Below are positions 39,324 to 59,818 of a stretch of DNA of 64,000 nt, piece after piece; positions within the stretch are counted from its first letter, which is position 1; each line of letters begins with the position of its first letter. The translations under genes were made by a program, and so were the position numbers. The stretch comes from Candidatus Nomurabacteria bacterium RIFCSPLOWO2_01_FULL_42_17 (GTDB lineage Bacteria > Patescibacteriota > Minisyncoccia > Phycocordibacterales > UBA9973), in the NCBI GenBank assembly GCA_001785985.1, contig MFVE01000005.1:233771-297770 (forward strand). The letters are read 5' to 3'. Below the pieces are notes generated by a model. That model was given only the letters and a program-made list of their open reading frames with translations, was not told the DNA's origin and did no database searches.

Positions 39324-39359
39324 ATAGCATATTGGTAACGGCCGTCACCAATATGCTAT
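39324..39359. promoter_or_regulatory. 36-bp near-perfect palindrome ATAGCATATTGGTAACGGCCGTCACCAATATGCTAT
   Basis: 17 of 18 positions pair. It shares ATAGCA...ACGGCCGT...TGCTAT with the palindrome at 39942. Confidence 0.6.
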
Positions 39360-39941: not shown

Positions 39942-39977
39942 ATAGCACAATAGAGACGGCCGTCTCTATTGTGCTAT
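39942..39977. promoter_or_regulatory. 36-bp perfect palindrome ATAGCACAATAGAGACGGCCGTCTCTATTGTGCTAT
   Basis: All 18 pairs complementary. It lies 12 nt after the stop of the 39369 gene. Confidence 0.6.
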
Positions 39978-47011: not shown

Positions 47012-48493
47012 ATGACGAGCAAAGACAAAAAATATTTCTATATCTCTACGACGATTCCTTATGTAAACGCAGATCCTCACATTGGTTTTGCGCTGGAGCT
47101 GGTGCAGTCTGATGTGATTGCGAGATATCAACGCCTCATCGGACGTGAAGTATTTTTTAGCACTGGCACAGATGAATACGGACAAAAGATCTGGGAAGCG
47201 AGCCAAAAAGAAGGAAAAAATGTTCAGGATTATGTAGACCATTATGCGCAAAAATTTATAGAGCTCAAAGAGATACTCAATTTATCTTATGATAATTTTA
47301 TCCGAACTACCAGCAAAGAACACAACCTAGCGGCTCAAGAATTTTGGCGTCTTTGCGAGAGGAAAGGTGATATTTATAAAAAAATATACCGAGGACTTTA
47401 TTGTATCGGGTGCGAGAGATTTATCACCGAGAAAGATTTGTTGGATGGATATTGTTCTCTGCATCCGGGCAAGAAACCCGAGATGGTGGAAGAGGAAAAT
47501 TATTTTTTCAGACTGACAAACTATAAAAAACAGCTTCTAGAATATCTTTCAGATGAAAAAGTCGTCTTTCCGGAGTGGAGGAGGAAAGAAGCCATTGATT
47601 TTGTAAATGAGGGCATGGAAGATTTCTCGATCTCGCGCAGTGCCGAACGTTTTTCTTGGGGTATACCGATACCGGGGGATGATACGCAGGTGATGTATGT
47701 CTGGTTCGGCGCTTTCATAAATTATCTCTCGACCTTGGGATGGCCCGGAAGAACCTCACCCCAGCCCTCTCCTTATAAAGGAGAGGGAGGAAGTAATTTT
47801 GAAAAATTCTGGCAAAGAGGGCAGACGGTCCAGATGGCCGGCAAAGACATGGTCAAATTTCAGTCTGTCATGTGGCAGGGGATGTTGATGTCCGCAGGTA
47901 TGCCTACCACTGGTACTATTGTTTATCATGGCTTTATCACTGGTGAAGGCGGAGTAAAAATTTCTAAATCTGTGGGGAATGGGATACACCCGAACGATAT
48001 TGTGTCCGAATATGGCACGGATGCCCTGCGATATTTTCTTTTGCGCGAAATTTCGACATTCGAAGATAGCCCCTTTACGATAGAACGATTTAAGGAAGCC
48101 TACAATGCGAATCTCGCGAATGGTTTGGGGAATTTGGTTTCACGTATTCTTACTCTTTCTGAAAAATATTTAGACAAGTGTCCAGAAATTGGAGAGGGAT
48201 CTGATTTTAGAGAATATTTTAGCTTTTTTGAAAAATTTGATCTGAAACAAGCAGCAGACTATGTCTGGAATGAGATAGGAGAGCTGGATAAATTTATTCA
48301 AGAAACAGAGCCGTTCAAGGTGGTGAAGGTAGATGCGCAAAAAGGGAAGGAAATAATAGCAAACATGGTCCTTCGTTTATATCAAATAGCTCAAATGCTG
48401 GATCCAATCATGCCGGAGACAAATATATTGCTAAAAAAATTAATTCGAGAAAACAAAAAACCGGAAGCCCCTTTATTCCCACGCAAAGATTAA
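47012..48493 (+). CDS. metG: Methionine--tRNA ligase (minimal form)
   Basis: The HIGH region (ADPHIGFA), a CxxC knuckle and VKISKS (KMSKS). It contains the in-frame GC-rich hairpin coding SPQPSPYKGEGGS. Confidence 0.88.
   Translation: MTSKDKKYFYISTTIPYVNADPHIGFALELVQSDVIARYQRLIGREVFFSTGTDEYGQKIWEASQKEGKNVQDYVDHYAQKFIELKEILNLSYDNFIRTTSKEHNLAAQEFWRLCERKGDIYKKIYRGLYCIGCERFITEKDLLDGYCSLHPGKKPEMVEEENYFFRLTNYKKQLLEYLSDEKVVFPEWRRKEAIDFVNEGMEDFSISRSAERFSWGIPIPGDDTQVMYVWFGAFINYLSTLGWPGRTSPQPSPYKGEGGSNFEKFWQRGQTVQMAGKDMVKFQSVMWQGMLMSAGMPTTGTIVYHGFITGEGGVKISKSVGNGIHPNDIVSEYGTDALRYFLLREISTFEDSPFTIERFKEAYNANLANGLGNLVSRILTLSEKYLDKCPEIGEGSDFREYFSFFEKFDLKQAADYVWNEIGELDKFIQETEPFKVVKVDAQKGKEIIANMVLRLYQIAQMLDPIMPETNILLKKLIRENKKPEAPLFPRKD
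47765..47787. repeat. GC-rich hairpin repeat, family C, copy 1 (CCCTCTCCTT-ATAA-AGGAGAGGG), in-frame inside metG
   Basis: The same hairpin occurs at 51975-51997 and, in a variant form, at 52034-52058. Confidence 0.7.
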
Positions 48494-48534
48494 ATAGCAA
48501 TACATAGGTTTAACCTATGTATTGCTTAAACTAT

Positions 48535-49113
48535 ATGTATAAGAATATTAAAATAATTGCGGAAGTAAAGACGCAATCGCCCTTTGGTTATAAATCAGAT
48601 AATACATGGAATGAATTATTTAAAGTTGCTAATAAAATAGGAGATATTATTTCTATTCATACAGATGATAGATGGGGTGGCTCGTTTGATTTAATTAAAA
48701 AAGCTAGATCATTGACTAAAAAGCCAATTTTAGCCAAAGGAATACACGAGAGGGATGAAGATATACAAAAAGCAATTGATGCTGGGGCAGATTGGGTGTT
48801 GGTCGTAGGTAGAATTCCTAGAGTTCATCTAGAAAAATGTTTGATTGAACCTTTAACCCTTCAGGAACTTAAAAATATTCCAGAAAGTTACAAAGCGGTA
48901 TGGAATAGTCGTGATTTATTGAATGGAAAATTTAAAAAAGAAAGTTTTGAAGAAGCCAGGGGTCTATTTAAAGGTTGGCTTTGCCAAGCAAGCAATATCA
49001 AGACAGTGGATGATATTAAAAAGGGAGCTGAAGCTGTTCTTGTCGGTACGTATTTATTGGATTTTGAAAAATCTGTGAGTTATACACAGATAAACTCTAA
49101 ATACATAGGTTAA
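48535..49113 (+). CDS. Indole-3-glycerol-phosphate synthase-like (TrpC-like, divergent and short) TIM-barrel protein
   Basis: IIAEVKTQSPFGY, ISIHTDDRWGGSFDLIKKAR and PILAKGI...AIDAGADWVLV resemble IGPS motifs (IIAE.K.ASPS.G, ISVLTD...F.GS). No other trp genes are in the window. The start is moved to MYKNIKII. Confidence 0.45.
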   Translation: MYKNIKIIAEVKTQSPFGYKSDNTWNELFKVANKIGDIISIHTDDRWGGSFDLIKKARSLTKKPILAKGIHERDEDIQKAIDAGADWVLVVGRIPRVHLEKCLIEPLTLQELKNIPESYKAVWNSRDLLNGKFKKESFEEARGLFKGWLCQASNIKTVDDIKKGAEAVLVGTYLLDFEKSVSYTQINSKYIG

Positions 49114-49141
49114 ACCTATGTATTTATGTTATCATATACTT

Positions 49142-49816
49142 ATGAATAGAAAAGTGCCATTTGTGGAAGGGGAATATTATCATGTATACAATCGCGGGGT
49201 TGATAAACGGGTTATTTTTCAAGATGTTGTAGATTATAAAAGATTAATTTTGCTATTGAAAATATTAAATACTACACAAAATATAATTGTGCGCGATCTT
49301 TTTAAAAATAAAACTTATGAAGAAATTATTTCTGAAAAAATAGCTGATCCTATTGTGGCAATAGGTGCGTATTGCTTAATGCCGAATCATTTTCATATAT
49401 TAATTACCCCATTGGTTGAAAAGGGTGTAGAAAAATATATGCAAAAAATACAAACAGCCTATACAATGTATTTTAATAATAAAAATGAAAGATCTGGGGC
49501 TTTATTGCAGGGGACATTTAAGTCTCAACATTTAGATACTGATGAATATTTGAAATATATTTATTCATACATACATTTAAACCCAGCAAAATTGAAAGAT
49601 AAAGACTGGAAGGAAAAAGGGCCCAGAGATTTTCAATCTTTGAAAGAATTTGTGTTGAGCTATAAATATTCAAGTATAGGGGAGTATTTAAAAGATGATT
49701 TCGTTATTATAAATAATACTCCTTTCCCGACTTACATGGAAGATTATAAATCCAAAGAGGAATATTTTAAGATGATGGTCGATGATTGGCTTAGATACCA
49801 AAATACAGAGGTTTAA
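49142..49816 (+). CDS. REP-associated tyrosine transposase (RAYT) / IS200-like Y1 HUH transposase
   Basis: GEYYHVYNRG, the HuH motif MPNHFHILI and the catalytic Tyr motif YIYSYIHLNPA. The start is moved to MNRKVPF. Confidence 0.8.
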   Translation: MNRKVPFVEGEYYHVYNRGVDKRVIFQDVVDYKRLILLLKILNTTQNIIVRDLFKNKTYEEIISEKIADPIVAIGAYCLMPNHFHILITPLVEKGVEKYMQKIQTAYTMYFNNKNERSGALLQGTFKSQHLDTDEYLKYIYSYIHLNPAKLKDKDWKEKGPRDFQSLKEFVLSYKYSSIGEYLKDDFVIINNTPFPTYMEDYKSKEEYFKMMVDDWLRYQNTEV

Positions 49817-49833
49817 CCTATGTATTTCAATTT

Positions 49834-50748
49834 ATGTCCCCTAAATACATAGACATCCATAGCCACGTGAATTTTAAAGCTTTTGATGCAGATCGAGACG
49901 AGGTAATTAAGCGTGCTTTAGAAAACGATACTTGGGTGATAAATGTTGGCACGCAGGTGGATACCTCTAAAAAGGCCGTTGAGATGGCGCATCAATACGA
50001 GGAGGGTGTGTATGCGATTATCGGACTTCATCCGATCCATACGGGAGTTTCTTTTCACGATGAAAAAGAATTAGGCCCCGCCTTCGCTAAAGCTTCGGAC
50101 GGGCAAGGGAGGGAGGAAGGGTTCACTTCCCGCGGAGAAGTTTTTGATAAAGAATCTTACAGAGAACTTTTGAAAAATCCTAAGACAAATAAAAAAATAG
50201 TTGGAATAGGGGAGTGTGGTCTTGATTATTATAGATGTACACCGGAATCAGTCGAAAAACAGAAAAAAGATTTTATTGCGCAGATAGAACTGGCAAATGA
50301 ATTCAATAAACCTCTCATGCTTCACATTCGCAACAATTCGGAAAAGATCCACCCCGACTTGAAAGTCACCCCTCAAGAGGGGAATAATGCGTATGTTGAT
50401 GCGTTAGAAATTTTAAAGAAACATGCAAAGGTCAAAGGCAATGTGCATTTTTTTGCTGGCAGGTGGGAAGAGGCGAAAGCGTTTCTGGATTTCGGCTTCG
50501 CTCTTTCTTTCACTGGCGTTATCACATTTACAAATGATTATAATGAGATTATCAAAAATACTCCCCTCGATATGATCATGTCTGAGACCGATTCTCCATA
50601 TGTTACGCCTGCTCCTTATAGAGGCAAGAGGAACGAGCCATCTTATGTAAAGGAAGTGGTCAAAAAAATCGCTGAAGTCAAAAATCTACCTGAAAACGAG
50701 GTGGCGCAGGCCATAATTGCCAATGCAAAACGCATCTTTACTTTATAA
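49834..50748 (+). CDS. tatD: TatD-family metal-dependent DNase/hydrolase
   Basis: IDIHSHV, GECGLDYY, LHIRN and SETDSPY. It contains an extra ~35-aa GC-rich insert (GPAFAKASDGQGREEGFTSRGEVF). Confidence 0.8.
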   Translation: MSPKYIDIHSHVNFKAFDADRDEVIKRALENDTWVINVGTQVDTSKKAVEMAHQYEEGVYAIIGLHPIHTGVSFHDEKELGPAFAKASDGQGREEGFTSRGEVFDKESYRELLKNPKTNKKIVGIGECGLDYYRCTPESVEKQKKDFIAQIELANEFNKPLMLHIRNNSEKIHPDLKVTPQEGNNAYVDALEILKKHAKVKGNVHFFAGRWEEAKAFLDFGFALSFTGVITFTNDYNEIIKNTPLDMIMSETDSPYVTPAPYRGKRNEPSYVKEVVKKIAEVKNLPENEVAQAIIANAKRIFTL

Positions 50749-50763
50749 AGTGTTTTTGCTAGT

Positions 50764-51261
50764 ATGAAGTTCATGCCAGAAAATGAAAATGAAATAGTTT
50801 CAGAGACGAATTCCCAGATTTACGAACTTGGCTATCTTTTGGCGCCATCAATCAAAGAAGAGGATTTGCCAGTAAATTATGGCAATATCAAAGAACTTGT
50901 AACATCTTTTGGCGCAGAAGTTATCGCGGATGAGATGCCGAAAATGATCGGTCTCGCATATGCCATGCAAAAAGTCACATCCAATGTGCGCAATAAATTT
51001 AACACGGCGTATTTTGGTTGGATAAAGTTTGCGATGGGGCCCGACAAAATACTCGAGTTGAAGAAACGCCTAGATCTAGATCCGAATTTTATTCGATTTT
51101 TGATATTGAAAACAGTCAAGGAAAATACTATTGCGGCAAAAAGATTTGTGCGCGGAGAGACGTATAGGAGACCAAGATCAAAGAGTCCAGCAAATGAAAC
51201 AGCTGTGCCTATCAACAAAGAAGAGATAGATAAAGAAATTGATGCGTTAATAGCAGTCTAG
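50764..51261 (+). CDS. rpsF: 30S ribosomal protein S6 (with N- and C-terminal extensions)
   Basis: YELGYLLAP...LAYAMQK...Y..IKF fits the S6 pattern. It sits in the rpsF-ssb-rpsR order. Confidence 0.6.
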   Translation: MKFMPENENEIVSETNSQIYELGYLLAPSIKEEDLPVNYGNIKELVTSFGAEVIADEMPKMIGLAYAMQKVTSNVRNKFNTAYFGWIKFAMGPDKILELKKRLDLDPNFIRFLILKTVKENTIAAKRFVRGETYRRPRSKSPANETAVPINKEEIDKEIDALIAV

Positions 51262-51287
51262 AGTAGTTATAAAGTAAAATCAAAATC

Positions 51288-51749
51288 ATGTTTTTAAATA
51301 AAGCAATTTTAATAGGAAATCTTACTCGCGATCCAGAGCTCCGCTCACTCCCAACAGGGATCAAAGTCTGTTCATTTTCTCTGGCTACCAATCGTGTCTG
51401 GAAAGACAAGAACGGCGCGCGCCAAGAGGCGGCTGATTATCACAATGTCGTAGTCTTCGGACGCCAAGCCGAGACAGTCGCGCAGTACATGAAGAAGGGA
51501 AGCTCGATATTAGTGGAGGGCCGCATGCAGACTCGCAGCTGGGACGACAAGACCAGCGGAGAAAAAAAATATCGTACCGAAGTCATAGCTGATCGTACAC
51601 AATTTGGTCCCAAGGGTTCGGGAGGTTCTGGAGGGGGAGCTACAGGAGCAGCTCAAAGCACACCAAAAGATTCAAGTGCCAAGGGCGGCGAAATCGACAG
51701 TATAGAATATCCCGAAGAAGACATTAATCCTGAAGACATTCCATTTTAA
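51288..51749 (+). CDS. ssb: Single-stranded DNA-binding protein
   Basis: OB fold ([16 protein letters not shown]), a Gly-rich linker and the acidic tip [11 protein letters not shown]. Confidence 0.9.
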
Positions 51750-51766
51750 CAATTTATAAATCAGCC

Positions 51767-51967
51767 ATGAAACAAGATTATTTTTCAGCCAACAATATAA
51801 AATATATAGATTACAAGGATGTTGAAATCCTAAAGAAATTCATCAATCCTAATGGCAAGATCATCAGCCACAAGCGCACAGGCGTGACTGCGAAAAATCA
51901 GCGCCAATTAACTTCTGCTATTAAACACGCTCGATTCTTGGGCTTGCTTCCTTTTGTGGTGAAATAG
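51767..51967 (+). CDS. rpsR: 30S ribosomal protein S18
   Basis: [39 protein letters not shown]. Confidence 0.85.
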
Positions 51968-51974
51968 TATTTCC

Positions 51975-52058
51975 CCCTCTCCTTAATAAGGAGAGGGTTG
52001 GGGTGAGGTGAATTAATTAAGAACCGCCCCTCATTCCCCTCCTTGTTAAGGAGGGGAG
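51975..52058. terminator. Two family-C GC-rich hairpins in the convergent rpsR/efp intergenic region
   Basis: ccctctcctt-aataa-ggagaggg (51975-51997) and ttcccctcctt-gtt-aaggaggggagg (52034-52058). Neither has a clear U-tract. Confidence 0.45.
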
Positions 52059-52068
52059 GAATAAAATT

Positions 52069-52650
52069 CTAAACGCGCTCCACGTATTCTCCAGTTTCGG
52101 TATTTACAACGACTACATCTCCATCAGCTATAAACATCGGCGCGTTGAGGGTTGCTCCATTTTCTAGCGTGATGATCTTCATCCCGCCCTTAGAGGTGTC
52201 TCCACGAACGGCAGGGGGAGCTTCTTTTACTTTAAAATTCATTTTGATAGGTAAAGTAATTTTAATTATTTTTTCTTCATCTTCGTCATTAGTCCATACT
52301 AGAGCCGTGACATTGCCATTTTGTTTTAAAAATTTTACTGCGTCTCCGATCAGCGCGATATCTAATTTAAATCTATTGCTTTTGTCATTTGGATCGCAGA
52401 ACCAATATTCACCTTTATTTGAATACAAAAAAGTTACCTCTTTTTTATCTATATCCGCTTCGTCTGCTGATTCAGAAACATGAAAAGTAGCATTAATGGT
52501 TTTGCCTGAGATCAAAGTTTTGAGTTTTACCTGGTTTTGAGGCTTTCTTTGCTGGGTACGTGCGACATGAGACTCGATCACCTCACATGGCTCACCATCA
52601 TAAATGATTATTTTCTTTTCGCGAATTTCGCTGTATTCAAGTTTTGACAT
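52069..52650 (-). CDS. efp: Elongation factor P (variant beta3-beta4 loop)
   Basis: The three-domain EF-P pattern and the C-terminus TGEYVERV. The loop reads HVARTQQRKPQNQ instead of HVKPGKGQ. Confidence 0.7.
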   Translation of the reverse strand: MSKLEYSEIREKKIIIYDGEPCEVIESHVARTQQRKPQNQVKLKTLISGKTINATFHVSESADEADIDKKEVTFLYSNKGEYWFCDPNDKSNRFKLDIALIGDAVKFLKQNGNVTALVWTNDEDEEKIIKITLPIKMNFKVKEAPPAVRGDTSKGGMKIITLENGATLNAPMFIADGDVVVVNTETGEYVERV

Positions 52651-59701: not shown

Positions 59702-59744
59702 GGTCACTCTTGTCTCGTAGTTGCTTGATAGAATCAACAAAAAA

Positions 59745-59771
59745 CCACCCCAATAAAAGGGGTGGTTTTTT
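59745..59771 (+). terminator. Rho-independent terminator (ccacccc-aataaaa-ggggtgg followed by ttttttg)
   Basis: Seen directly, about 40 nt after the stop at 59701. Confidence 0.75.
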
Positions 59772-59818
59772 GTTGTGTATTTGAATTTATGATTTAAATG
59801 ATGTAATATGATGCTTAT

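Follow-up and report, generated by a model that had tools for sequence, protein, structure and literature searches.

BoxC/PIT-like triplex-motif repeats in a Nomurabacteria genome and their association with DUF559 nuclease genes

BoxC repeats, also named PIT (potential intrastrand triplex) elements, have been catalogued in Escherichia coli for about 30 years and are linked to triplex formation in vitro and to genome instability. We know of no protein associated with them, nor of a function or a mechanism by which they spread. Here we describe a 64-kb stretch of DNA of Candidatus Nomurabacteria bacterium RIFCSPLOWO2_01_FULL_42_17 (the window) that carries three copies of a hairpin-forming unit, one of them in frame within metG, the gene of methionyl-tRNA synthetase (MetRS), and two in the convergent spacer between rpsR and efp. 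Judged by sequence comparison the copies belong to the BoxC/PIT/TMECO family of short dispersed DNA repeats, and in relatives and in other phyla such units are physically associated with genes of DUF559 (YcjD-like) nucleases.

BoxC, PIT (Maher) and TMECO elements (Bachellier et al. 1990s; Hoyne/Maher 2000) were equated by Holder et al. 2015 (PMC4666352), who gave their pattern as CCCTCNCCC-N3-6-GGGNGAGGG-N3-GGGNGAGGG and counted 3610 copies over 262 proteobacterial genomes, E. coli K-12 having 23 of its own. In that work a single strand gave a stable purine-motif triplex in vitro and motif-bearing loci were more rearranged between strains; its introduction states that purine-motif triplexes are not formed in RNA. 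Polymerase blockage in vitro and local instability are also described in the literature. There are E. coli strains with 1 and with 29 TMECO copies, and Salmonella has none. Follow-up work by Maher, as far as it is cited there, found neither promoter nor terminator activity of PIT elements in E. coli. Individual E. coli BoxC members, such as ATTAACCCTCACCCCAGCCCTCACCCTGGAAGGGAGAGGGG, were listed by Cozzuto et al. 2008 (PMC2267715, Additional file 1).

Two other repeat systems resemble the unit described here. REP and REPIN elements with their RAYT genes (REPtrons) share with it the short GC-rich palindromes that occur singly or as inverted doublets, the small gene flanked by inverted copies and the presence of intragenic copies (PMC3733652). 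They differ in that the gene bracketed here encodes a PD-(D/E)XK nuclease of the Vsr fold and not an HUH Y1 transposase, and in that the window units have no GTAG or CGTC tag but a third block that mirrors one arm. Rickettsia palindromic elements (RPEs; Ogata et al. 2000, as cited in PMC3184786 and PMC3733652) are likewise palindromic repeats that have entered essential genes in frame, where loops accommodate them and several of their frames are translated. According to these citing passages RPEs are about 105-146 bp long, restricted to Rickettsia and of another sequence, whereas the window unit measures about 35-45 bp and is BoxC-like; the same passages describe no triplex block or nuclease gene for RPEs. 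As to the nuclease, a survey of PD-(D/E)XK enzymes groups DUF559 with Vsr and the homing endonuclease I-Bth0305I, with which it shares both fold and clade (PMC3424549, PMC3239194). The presence of a proven homing endonuclease in the DUF559 clade makes a role in selfish DNA plausible. I-Bth0305I itself differs in being encoded by a group I intron and in having a long asymmetric target.

Window copies and their third block

The elements, and the genes on either side of the spacer, lie at the following window positions.

47753-47787, minus strand: metG element, BoxC/PIT-like; 8 of 8 purine-motif triads, hairpin of -17 to -19 kcal/mol
47765-47787, no strand assigned: hairpin core of the in-frame metG copy, CCCTCTCCTTATAAAGGAGAGGG; 10-bp perfect stem, 3-nt loop
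51975-52009, plus strand: spacer element 1, CCCTCTCCTT-AAT-AAGGAGAGGG-TTG-GGGTGAGGT; 8 of 8 triads
52024-52057, minus strand: spacer element 2, a reversed variant, TCCCCTCCTT-AAC-AAGGAGGGGA-ATG-AGGGGCGG on the minus strand; 7 of 8 triads
51968-52068, no strand assigned: convergent rpsR/efp spacer, occupied by two different element types inverted tail to tail
51767-51967, plus strand: rpsR, ribosomal protein S18, upstream neighbour of the spacer; Pfam Ribosomal_S18, E=3e-24
52069-52650, minus strand: efp, elongation factor P, convergent neighbour; Pfam EFP domains

On the minus strand the metG element consists, in this order, of the C-arm CCCTCTCCTT, the loop TAT, the purine arm AAGGAGAGGG, the loop CTG and a third block GGGTGAGGT; on the plus strand it reads AGAACCTCACCCC-AG-CCCTCTCCTT-ATA-AAGGAGAGGG and is the reverse complement of the unit at 51975. 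The hairpin core of spacer element 1, CCCTCTCCTTAATAAGGAGAGGG (51975-51997; 10-bp perfect stem, 3-nt loop), starts 8 nt past the rpsR stop and the element extends in a longer reading to CCCCCTCTCCTT-AAT-AAGGAGAGGG-TT-GGGGTGAGGTGAAT. The core of spacer element 2, TCCCCTCCTT-GTT-AAGGAGGGGA (52035-52057; 10-bp perfect stem, 3-nt loop), lies 12 nt before the efp stop codon. A search of the 64 kb for the 23-mer with up to 3 mismatches found the sites at 47765 and 51975 alone (0.00 expected in shuffles), and CTCCTT-N2-8-AAGGAG was observed 3 times against 0.04 expected. Three copies were read in the 64 kb of this genome, and relatives hold several per locus of 13-21 kb. An original prediction, made from the window alone, had proposed a single repeat family present both between genes and within a reading frame. 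Both points held, the copies lying in metG as well as in the rpsR/efp spacer; the third block, the BoxC/PIT identity and the spread over many phyla were absent from it.

The spacer pair combines the CCCTCTCC type and the TCCCCTCC type tail to tail and is homologous over about 88 bp to a doublet inside metG of a relative (locus L168). As one strand the spacer could form a single long hairpin (RNA fold -52.4 kcal/mol, z=-5.5), and because the inverted pair folds in this way Rfam searches of the spacer hairpin at permissive E-values returned microRNA-precursor models alone, far below threshold. The strand of efp varies between loci: it is minus in the window and in L003, and plus in L001 (13694-14296) and L002 (14764-15342), while the neighbours rpsR and recA are unchanged. 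This flip is an inversion of a single gene, and in the window the triplex-motif doublet lies at one of its borders.

When the window's metG loop was compared at the DNA level with the syntenic loci of relatives, the unit proved to be asymmetric. At 2-3 nt past the purine arm stands a third block that is conserved, GGGGTGAGGT, and mirrors that arm; it lies at 47753-47762 (ACCTCACCCC, the element being on the minus strand there), at 52000-52009 (GGGGTGAGGT) and at 52024-52031 (CCGCCCCT, in the minus-strand element). In each unit the pyrimidine arm CCCTCTCCTT is followed by the complementary purine arm AAGGAGAGGG and then, 2-3 nt later, by the G-rich block GGGTGAGGT. A single strand could fold as a hairpin, with the third block binding the purine strand through G.G-C, A.A-T and T.A-T triads. 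Set antiparallel to the purine arm AGGAGAGGG, GGGTGAGGT gives G.G, T.A and A.A triads, with the G-rich tail as third strand.

Covariation between arm and third block was scored on 888 kb of Nomurabacteria loci, from which every perfect 8-nt pyrimidine/purine hairpin was taken blind to the downstream sequence, by counting valid triads in the best 8-nt block 1-6 nt past the purine arm. At least 7 of 8 triads were valid in 43% of the strand-specific hairpin entries, for which the counting of both strands of each hairpin sets a ceiling of about 50%, against 7% with shuffled tails and 0.9% with random 16-mers. Nomurabacteria hold at least 15 arm variants, each with its own mirror block, which amounts to a three-way covariation; examples are GGAGAGGG with GGGTGAGG, GGGGAGGG with GGGAGGGG, GGGGGAGG with GGTGGGGG, GGGGGAAG with GAAGGGGG, GGGGGAAA with AAAGGGGG and GGAGAGGA with AGGTGAGG. 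A T follows GGGGTGAGG in 101 of 134 copies and pairs with the A of the arm. The third block is under selection.

Both a G-quadruplex and a similarity to the 16S rRNA 3' end (Shine-Dalgarno) were entertained, from the sequence alone, as reasons for the conservation and were dropped, as the covariation of the mirror block accounts better for it. The original prediction had placed an AGGAG in the hairpin loop and suggested that it could act as an internal Shine-Dalgarno-like site. Its location was mistaken, since AGGAG sits in the 3' stem arm, and the suggested role found no support: AGGAG belongs to the base-paired purine arm and the element occurs in both orientations. The pyrimidine and purine arms together with the mirror third block account for the conservation of AGGAG.

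Comparison with the published BoxC members supports the family assignment. The window copy AGAACCTCACCCCAGCCCTCTCCTTATAAAGGAGAGGG has the same core and the same block order as the members of the Cozzuto list, and when written against the published pattern it reads CCCTCTCCT-TAATA-AGGAGAGGG-TTG-GGGTGAGGT, with three differing positions that together make up one triad. The three-block architecture is common to both, with a nearly equal core CCTCACCC(C)-NN-CCCTCTCC-loop-GGAGAGGG; in both the stems are conserved and the loops variable, copies lie near gene ends and inverted pairs join two types (in E. coli type A plus type B). Some hosts of the family carry dozens of copies per genome. The host differs, being here a low-GC bacterium of the candidate phyla.

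The family is widely spread. The pattern AAGGAGAGGGNNGGGGTGAGG, with 19 fixed bases, matched at least 120 stretches in species-representative genomes of many phyla, and nearly all of the matches listed have the complementary arm 3-7 nt upstream. Hosts among the matches listed are, within Patescibacteria, Nomura-, Moran-, Falkow-, Gracili-, Peri-, Doudna- and Uhrbacteria, and elsewhere Nostoc and other cyanobacteria, Gastranaerophilales, Bacteroidota, Ignavibacteria, Nitrospirota, Methylobacterium, Serratia, Methylomicrobium, Desulfuromonadales, Myxococcaceae, Planctomycetota, Verrucomicrobiota, Armatimonadota and Chloroflexota; Proteobacteria as a phylum are also among them. The presence of the same core in Patescibacteria and in many other phyla goes beyond the literature that we found. 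A phage-borne origin is unlikely, with the pattern matching 6 stretches in 2.9 million viral contigs. In cyanobacterium J06635_10 (L092, about 1700-1950) at least 4 units of 41 bp of a BoxC-type element stand head to tail with no spacers.

Copies within reading frames

The metG copy lies in a gene and an insertion with these coordinates.

47012-48493, plus strand: metG, methionyl-tRNA synthetase, 493 aa, open reading frame (ORF); Pfam tRNA-synt_1g, E=4e-97
47750-47788, plus strand: 13-codon in-frame insertion RTSPQPSPYKGEG, an exact gap in the alignment to Thermus thermophilus MetRS 1A8H

The encoded protein agrees at every residue (100% identity) with the MetRS of Candidatus Nomurabacteria bacterium RIFCSPLOWO2_01_FULL_42_17, and the palindrome is translated as P-S-P-Y-K-G-E-G. 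About three quarters of 120 close homologues have a length of 477-482 residues and a short loop, WP-(N/D)(S/N)K(G/E)x-FEKFW (for example WP-NSKGV-FEKFW), and the remaining quarter carry inserts at exactly the same loop; the loop of the window exceeds that of the closest insert-free relatives by 12 residues. The original prediction had described a loop longer than in E. coli MetRS; the short loop of most relatives and the 13-residue gap against 1A8H show that the metG copy is an insertion there. Relatives without the palindrome have the short loop, and many more copies exist beyond the window.

We examined the DNA of the loop inserts in 80 metagenomic relatives. A reverse BoxC-type unit is present in the window, L001 and L166; L201 and L202 have it in decayed form, and L195/L059 carry it in another frame; a forward unit is found in L002 and L184, and a tail-to-tail doublet of a forward and a reverse unit in L168. 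At least three other GC-rich repeat families occupy the same loop, and L195 has three elements in series. These other families (L125-L204; for example L162 3391-, L003 10715-10789, L194, L195 6699-) include a repeat that encodes SHHPALKGTPPPAGGE and is itself triplex-like, with a mini-hairpin in its second loop, and two more that encode SAKASAGKP and FDSAQGKP. The insert of the window has exactly the DNA sequence of that of L001, two alleles with 77% protein identity and with synonymous differences in the codons next to the insert. On a neighbour-joining tree, which is rough and has no support values, the inserted metG alleles are scattered among insert-free sisters, a distribution that fits repeated gains at a hot spot.

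MetRS is not the only host. Five of the six reading frames of the unit are open, as read from its sequence, and give peptides rich in Pro, Ser and Gly, so that copies in surface loops and linkers of essential genes survive. In the low-GC loci 14 pattern matches lie deep inside long ORFs, and the C-rich strand is the sense strand in 11 of them. Hosts confirmed by Pfam, with the unit in a linker or loop, are GluRS, IF-2 (where the unit separates EF-G_D2 from the IF-2 domain), UvrC (with UVR on one side and RNase H on the other), trigger factor and peptidase M16 (in the stretch that joins its two domains). UvrA-like and LeuRS-like ORFs, the latter with two copies, also carry in-frame units in linkers or loops, these hosts being named by sequence reading alone. 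The UvrA-like ORF of L066 has in addition two copies of an insert of about 30 residues, GNPVDGGNSSGLLRVKQRGRHATLRRRSAPR, probably a further family of intragenic repeats. Intragenic REPs are known in repair and replication genes (Di Nocera et al. 2013, PMC3733652). We found no published report of in-frame BoxC/PIT copies; full-text searches for the peptides GEGWGE, ERAGVR and TSPQPSP, and for the DNA strings of the element, returned nothing relevant. In-frame units in loops and linkers of essential genes (MetRS, GluRS, LeuRS, IF-2, UvrA, UvrC) extend the literature found; they make protein lengths vary in these reduced genomes and can mislead annotation and alignment.

DUF559 genes and competing explanations

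The units are physically associated with DUF559 genes. About 20 genes of Nomurabacteria loci encode proteins of some 115 residues that have a match to Pfam DUF559 (PF04480, E about 1e-33). All of them have a unit on at least one side and most have units on both, with the upstream copy reversed and 15-40 nt from the start codon and the downstream copy forward and 5-20 nt from the stop. A second iteration of the hidden Markov model search found no further DUF559 genes in the examined loci. Among 120 loci of other phyla that were selected by the pattern, all 5 DUF559 genes directly adjoin units; their hosts are Methylobacterium, Gastranaerophilales, Kapaibacterium, a gammaproteobacterium and Moranbacteria. 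Of the Nomurabacteria genes and these five together, most have inverted copies on both sides at 5-40 nt from the ORF. Across phyla the type-A ends show essentially no difference even though the DUF559 proteins share only about 40% identity, and the end subfamilies A (that of the window), B and C (which have other arms and mirrors to match) correspond to the clades of the DUF559 proteins.

A sample drawn by protein similarity only, from a tblastn search with one DUF559 protein against PLSDB (10 records), gave strict triplex motifs in the flanks of 7 of 10 DUF559 genes and motifs in 9-10 of 10 by inspection. Its members include Azospirillum, Sphingomonas, Sinorhizobium, Deinococcus, Synechocystis, Neisseria, Pseudanabaena and E. 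coli ycjD. At ycjD the BoxC copies are on the downstream side only, and the 300 nt downstream that hold them have a median of 14 matching places per genome in 5399 of 5426 E. coli genomes. Milman et al. 2023 list DUF559 proteins as over-represented, with an odds ratio of 14, among genes that have invertible inverted repeats on their flanks. No published link between DUF559/YcjD and BoxC/PIT repeats was found, and where published work on BoxC/PIT/TMECO found no associated gene, DUF559 genes are here bracketed by units. This bracketing in several phyla, with ycjD in E. coli flanked downstream only, adds to the literature that we found.

Two features of the cassettes may be mentioned here. At 13088-13173 of L195 an 86-bp segment retains the two ends of a cassette together with the final ~25 nt of the DUF559 ORF; it lies beside an intact cassette and is an internal deletion derivative resembling a miniature inverted-repeat transposable element. 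The metG-tatD spacer is a recurrent cassette site, used by three end subfamilies (L002, L135, L140, L148, L158, L159, L162, L166, L172, L175), and is about 700 bp from the MetRS loop that collects in-frame units.

These observations point to an element that would act at the level of DNA, as a structure-forming and instability-prone repeat and not as an RNA terminator. The units would be the inverted end modules of small DUF559-endonuclease cassettes in Patescibacteria and several other phyla. The DUF559 nuclease may recognise or nick the folded structure, and repair or recombination would then copy the cassette or its ends. Solo units and inverted doublets would be dispersed derivatives that persist where they do little harm, at gene ends and in linkers and loops, and the metG copy a tolerated passenger whose 13 residues are presumably neutral, with no role in MetRS function. 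We consider this explanation as a whole, from the BoxC/PIT identity and the DNA-level repeat to the cassette ends and the passenger in metG, to be likely. A bolder version, in which BoxC/PIT elements across phyla are the terminal modules of miniature selfish cassettes, with the nuclease copying the hairpin or triplex and solo derivatives seeding in-frame peptides, we put forward tentatively, as possible rather than probable. If it were true, a partnership like that of REP and RAYT would have been built on a different enzyme fold. The DUF559 link also makes the nature of BoxC approachable in a model organism, through E. coli YcjD.

Several points weigh against this explanation. To our knowledge no DUF559/YcjD protein has a known substrate, and cleavage of the structures considered here is putative. 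The 64-kb window contains only three copies and no DUF559 gene, the link being seen in relatives. The same data could also fit the reverse direction, with DUF559 genes homing into pre-existing repeats. One triad of the window units is swapped as a whole relative to the published pattern, T:A.T for C:G.G. In E. coli K-12 the copies were reported to be always intergenic and without strand bias, unlike the in-frame copies in essential genes found here, and no link of E. coli copies to mobile elements or to the function of flanking genes was seen; nor was a triplex detected in double-stranded DNA or in vivo (PMC4666352). At the metG copy a target-site duplication was sought, and the GGAAG repeat found, with a 42-bp period, was not reproduced in L001/L166; no defined insertion junction was established for this copy.

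Four other explanations have to be weighed against the cassette-end explanation. The units could work in RNA, as factor-independent terminators or 3'-end stabilisers without U-tracts, with the metG copy in frame by chance, and the original prediction had likened the intergenic copies to terminator stems. The filling of a convergent spacer by two copies right past two stop codons, the stability of the stems (about -17 to -19 kcal/mol each, -52 kcal/mol as a pair) and the copy often found past the metG stop in relatives would suit such a role. However, no T-run follows any copy on either strand and a terminator scan reports none of the three, the PIT elements of E. coli have neither terminator nor promoter activity in the work cited in PMC4666352, and copies past the metG stop are mostly left ends of DUF559 cassettes. 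A terminator within an essential single-copy gene would moreover do harm, and an RNA hairpin leaves the conservation and covariation of the third block unexplained, which makes an RNA-level role improbable. It is hardly credible that the units are REP/REPIN elements moved by the Y1 (IS200-like, RAYT-like) transposase whose gene lies at 49118-49816, some 600 bp past the metG stop. This gene has a Pfam Y1_Tnp match (E=1e-8), the spacer doublet is REPIN-like and intragenic REPs are known (Di Nocera et al. 2013, PMC3733652), but the units have no GTAG or CGTC tag, their flanks being TTTCC / GGGGTGAGG and AGAACC, and no Y1 orthologue occurs among the 120 loci from other phyla. The neighbouring Y1 gene was rejected as mobiliser, being flanked by another palindrome, TACATAGGTT-N-AACCTATGTA, and having orthologues downstream of insert-free metG (L126, L174, L131, L181, L200).

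The remaining two explanations concern the MetRS loop. An adaptive extension of the loop, with the DNA palindrome as by-product, would account for the maintained reading frame and for extended loops at this place in about a quarter of the homologues. It is highly improbable given that at least 4 unrelated DNA repeat families enter the loop, in both orientations and different frames and with unrelated peptides, that the insert DNA is identical between the two alleles that are 77% identical in protein and differ synonymously in the flanking codons, that three to five different peptides come from this one DNA unit where it lies in other proteins, and that Thermus MetRS and most relatives have no insert. 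For the history of the loop alone, the many gains at a hot spot could be replaced by one ancestral insertion of a doublet, as in L168, with halves lost by lineage and with lateral exchange. L168 has both a forward and a reverse unit, L184 a forward unit and a decayed right half, the window the reverse half only and L002 the forward half only, all at the same position. Against this stand the scatter of inserted alleles on the tree beside sisters with the short loop NSKGV, the three further repeat families at the same site and the three elements in series of L195, and we regard a single ancestral doublet as unlikely, though by no means far-fetched.

Other palindromes in the window

A different palindrome, (A)ATACATAGGTT-N-AACCTATGTAT(T), with perfect arms of 14-15 bp, occurs just past metG at 48496-48526 and 49098-49126. 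The two copies overlap the start codons of an IGPS-like ORF (48517-49113) and of the Y1_Tnp-like ORF (49118-49816), and the terminator scan reports both on the minus strand. In L001 and L003 tatD directly follows metG, so that these two ORFs are extra in the window. The Y1 family ORF has orthologues 62-83% identical at the same place in L126, L174, L131, L181 and L200 and hence behaves like a resident syntenic gene, not like one that moved recently.

Two 36-bp near-perfect palindromes of yet another family (ATAGCA...CGG|CCG...TGCTAT) lie 618 bp apart at 39324-39359 and 39942-39977, possibly one of the other hairpin families of the original prediction. At 59735-59775 a perfect 17-bp stem, CAACAAAAAACCACCCC / GGGGTGGTTTTTTGTTG, looks like a canonical bidirectional terminator, unlike the T-less triplex units.

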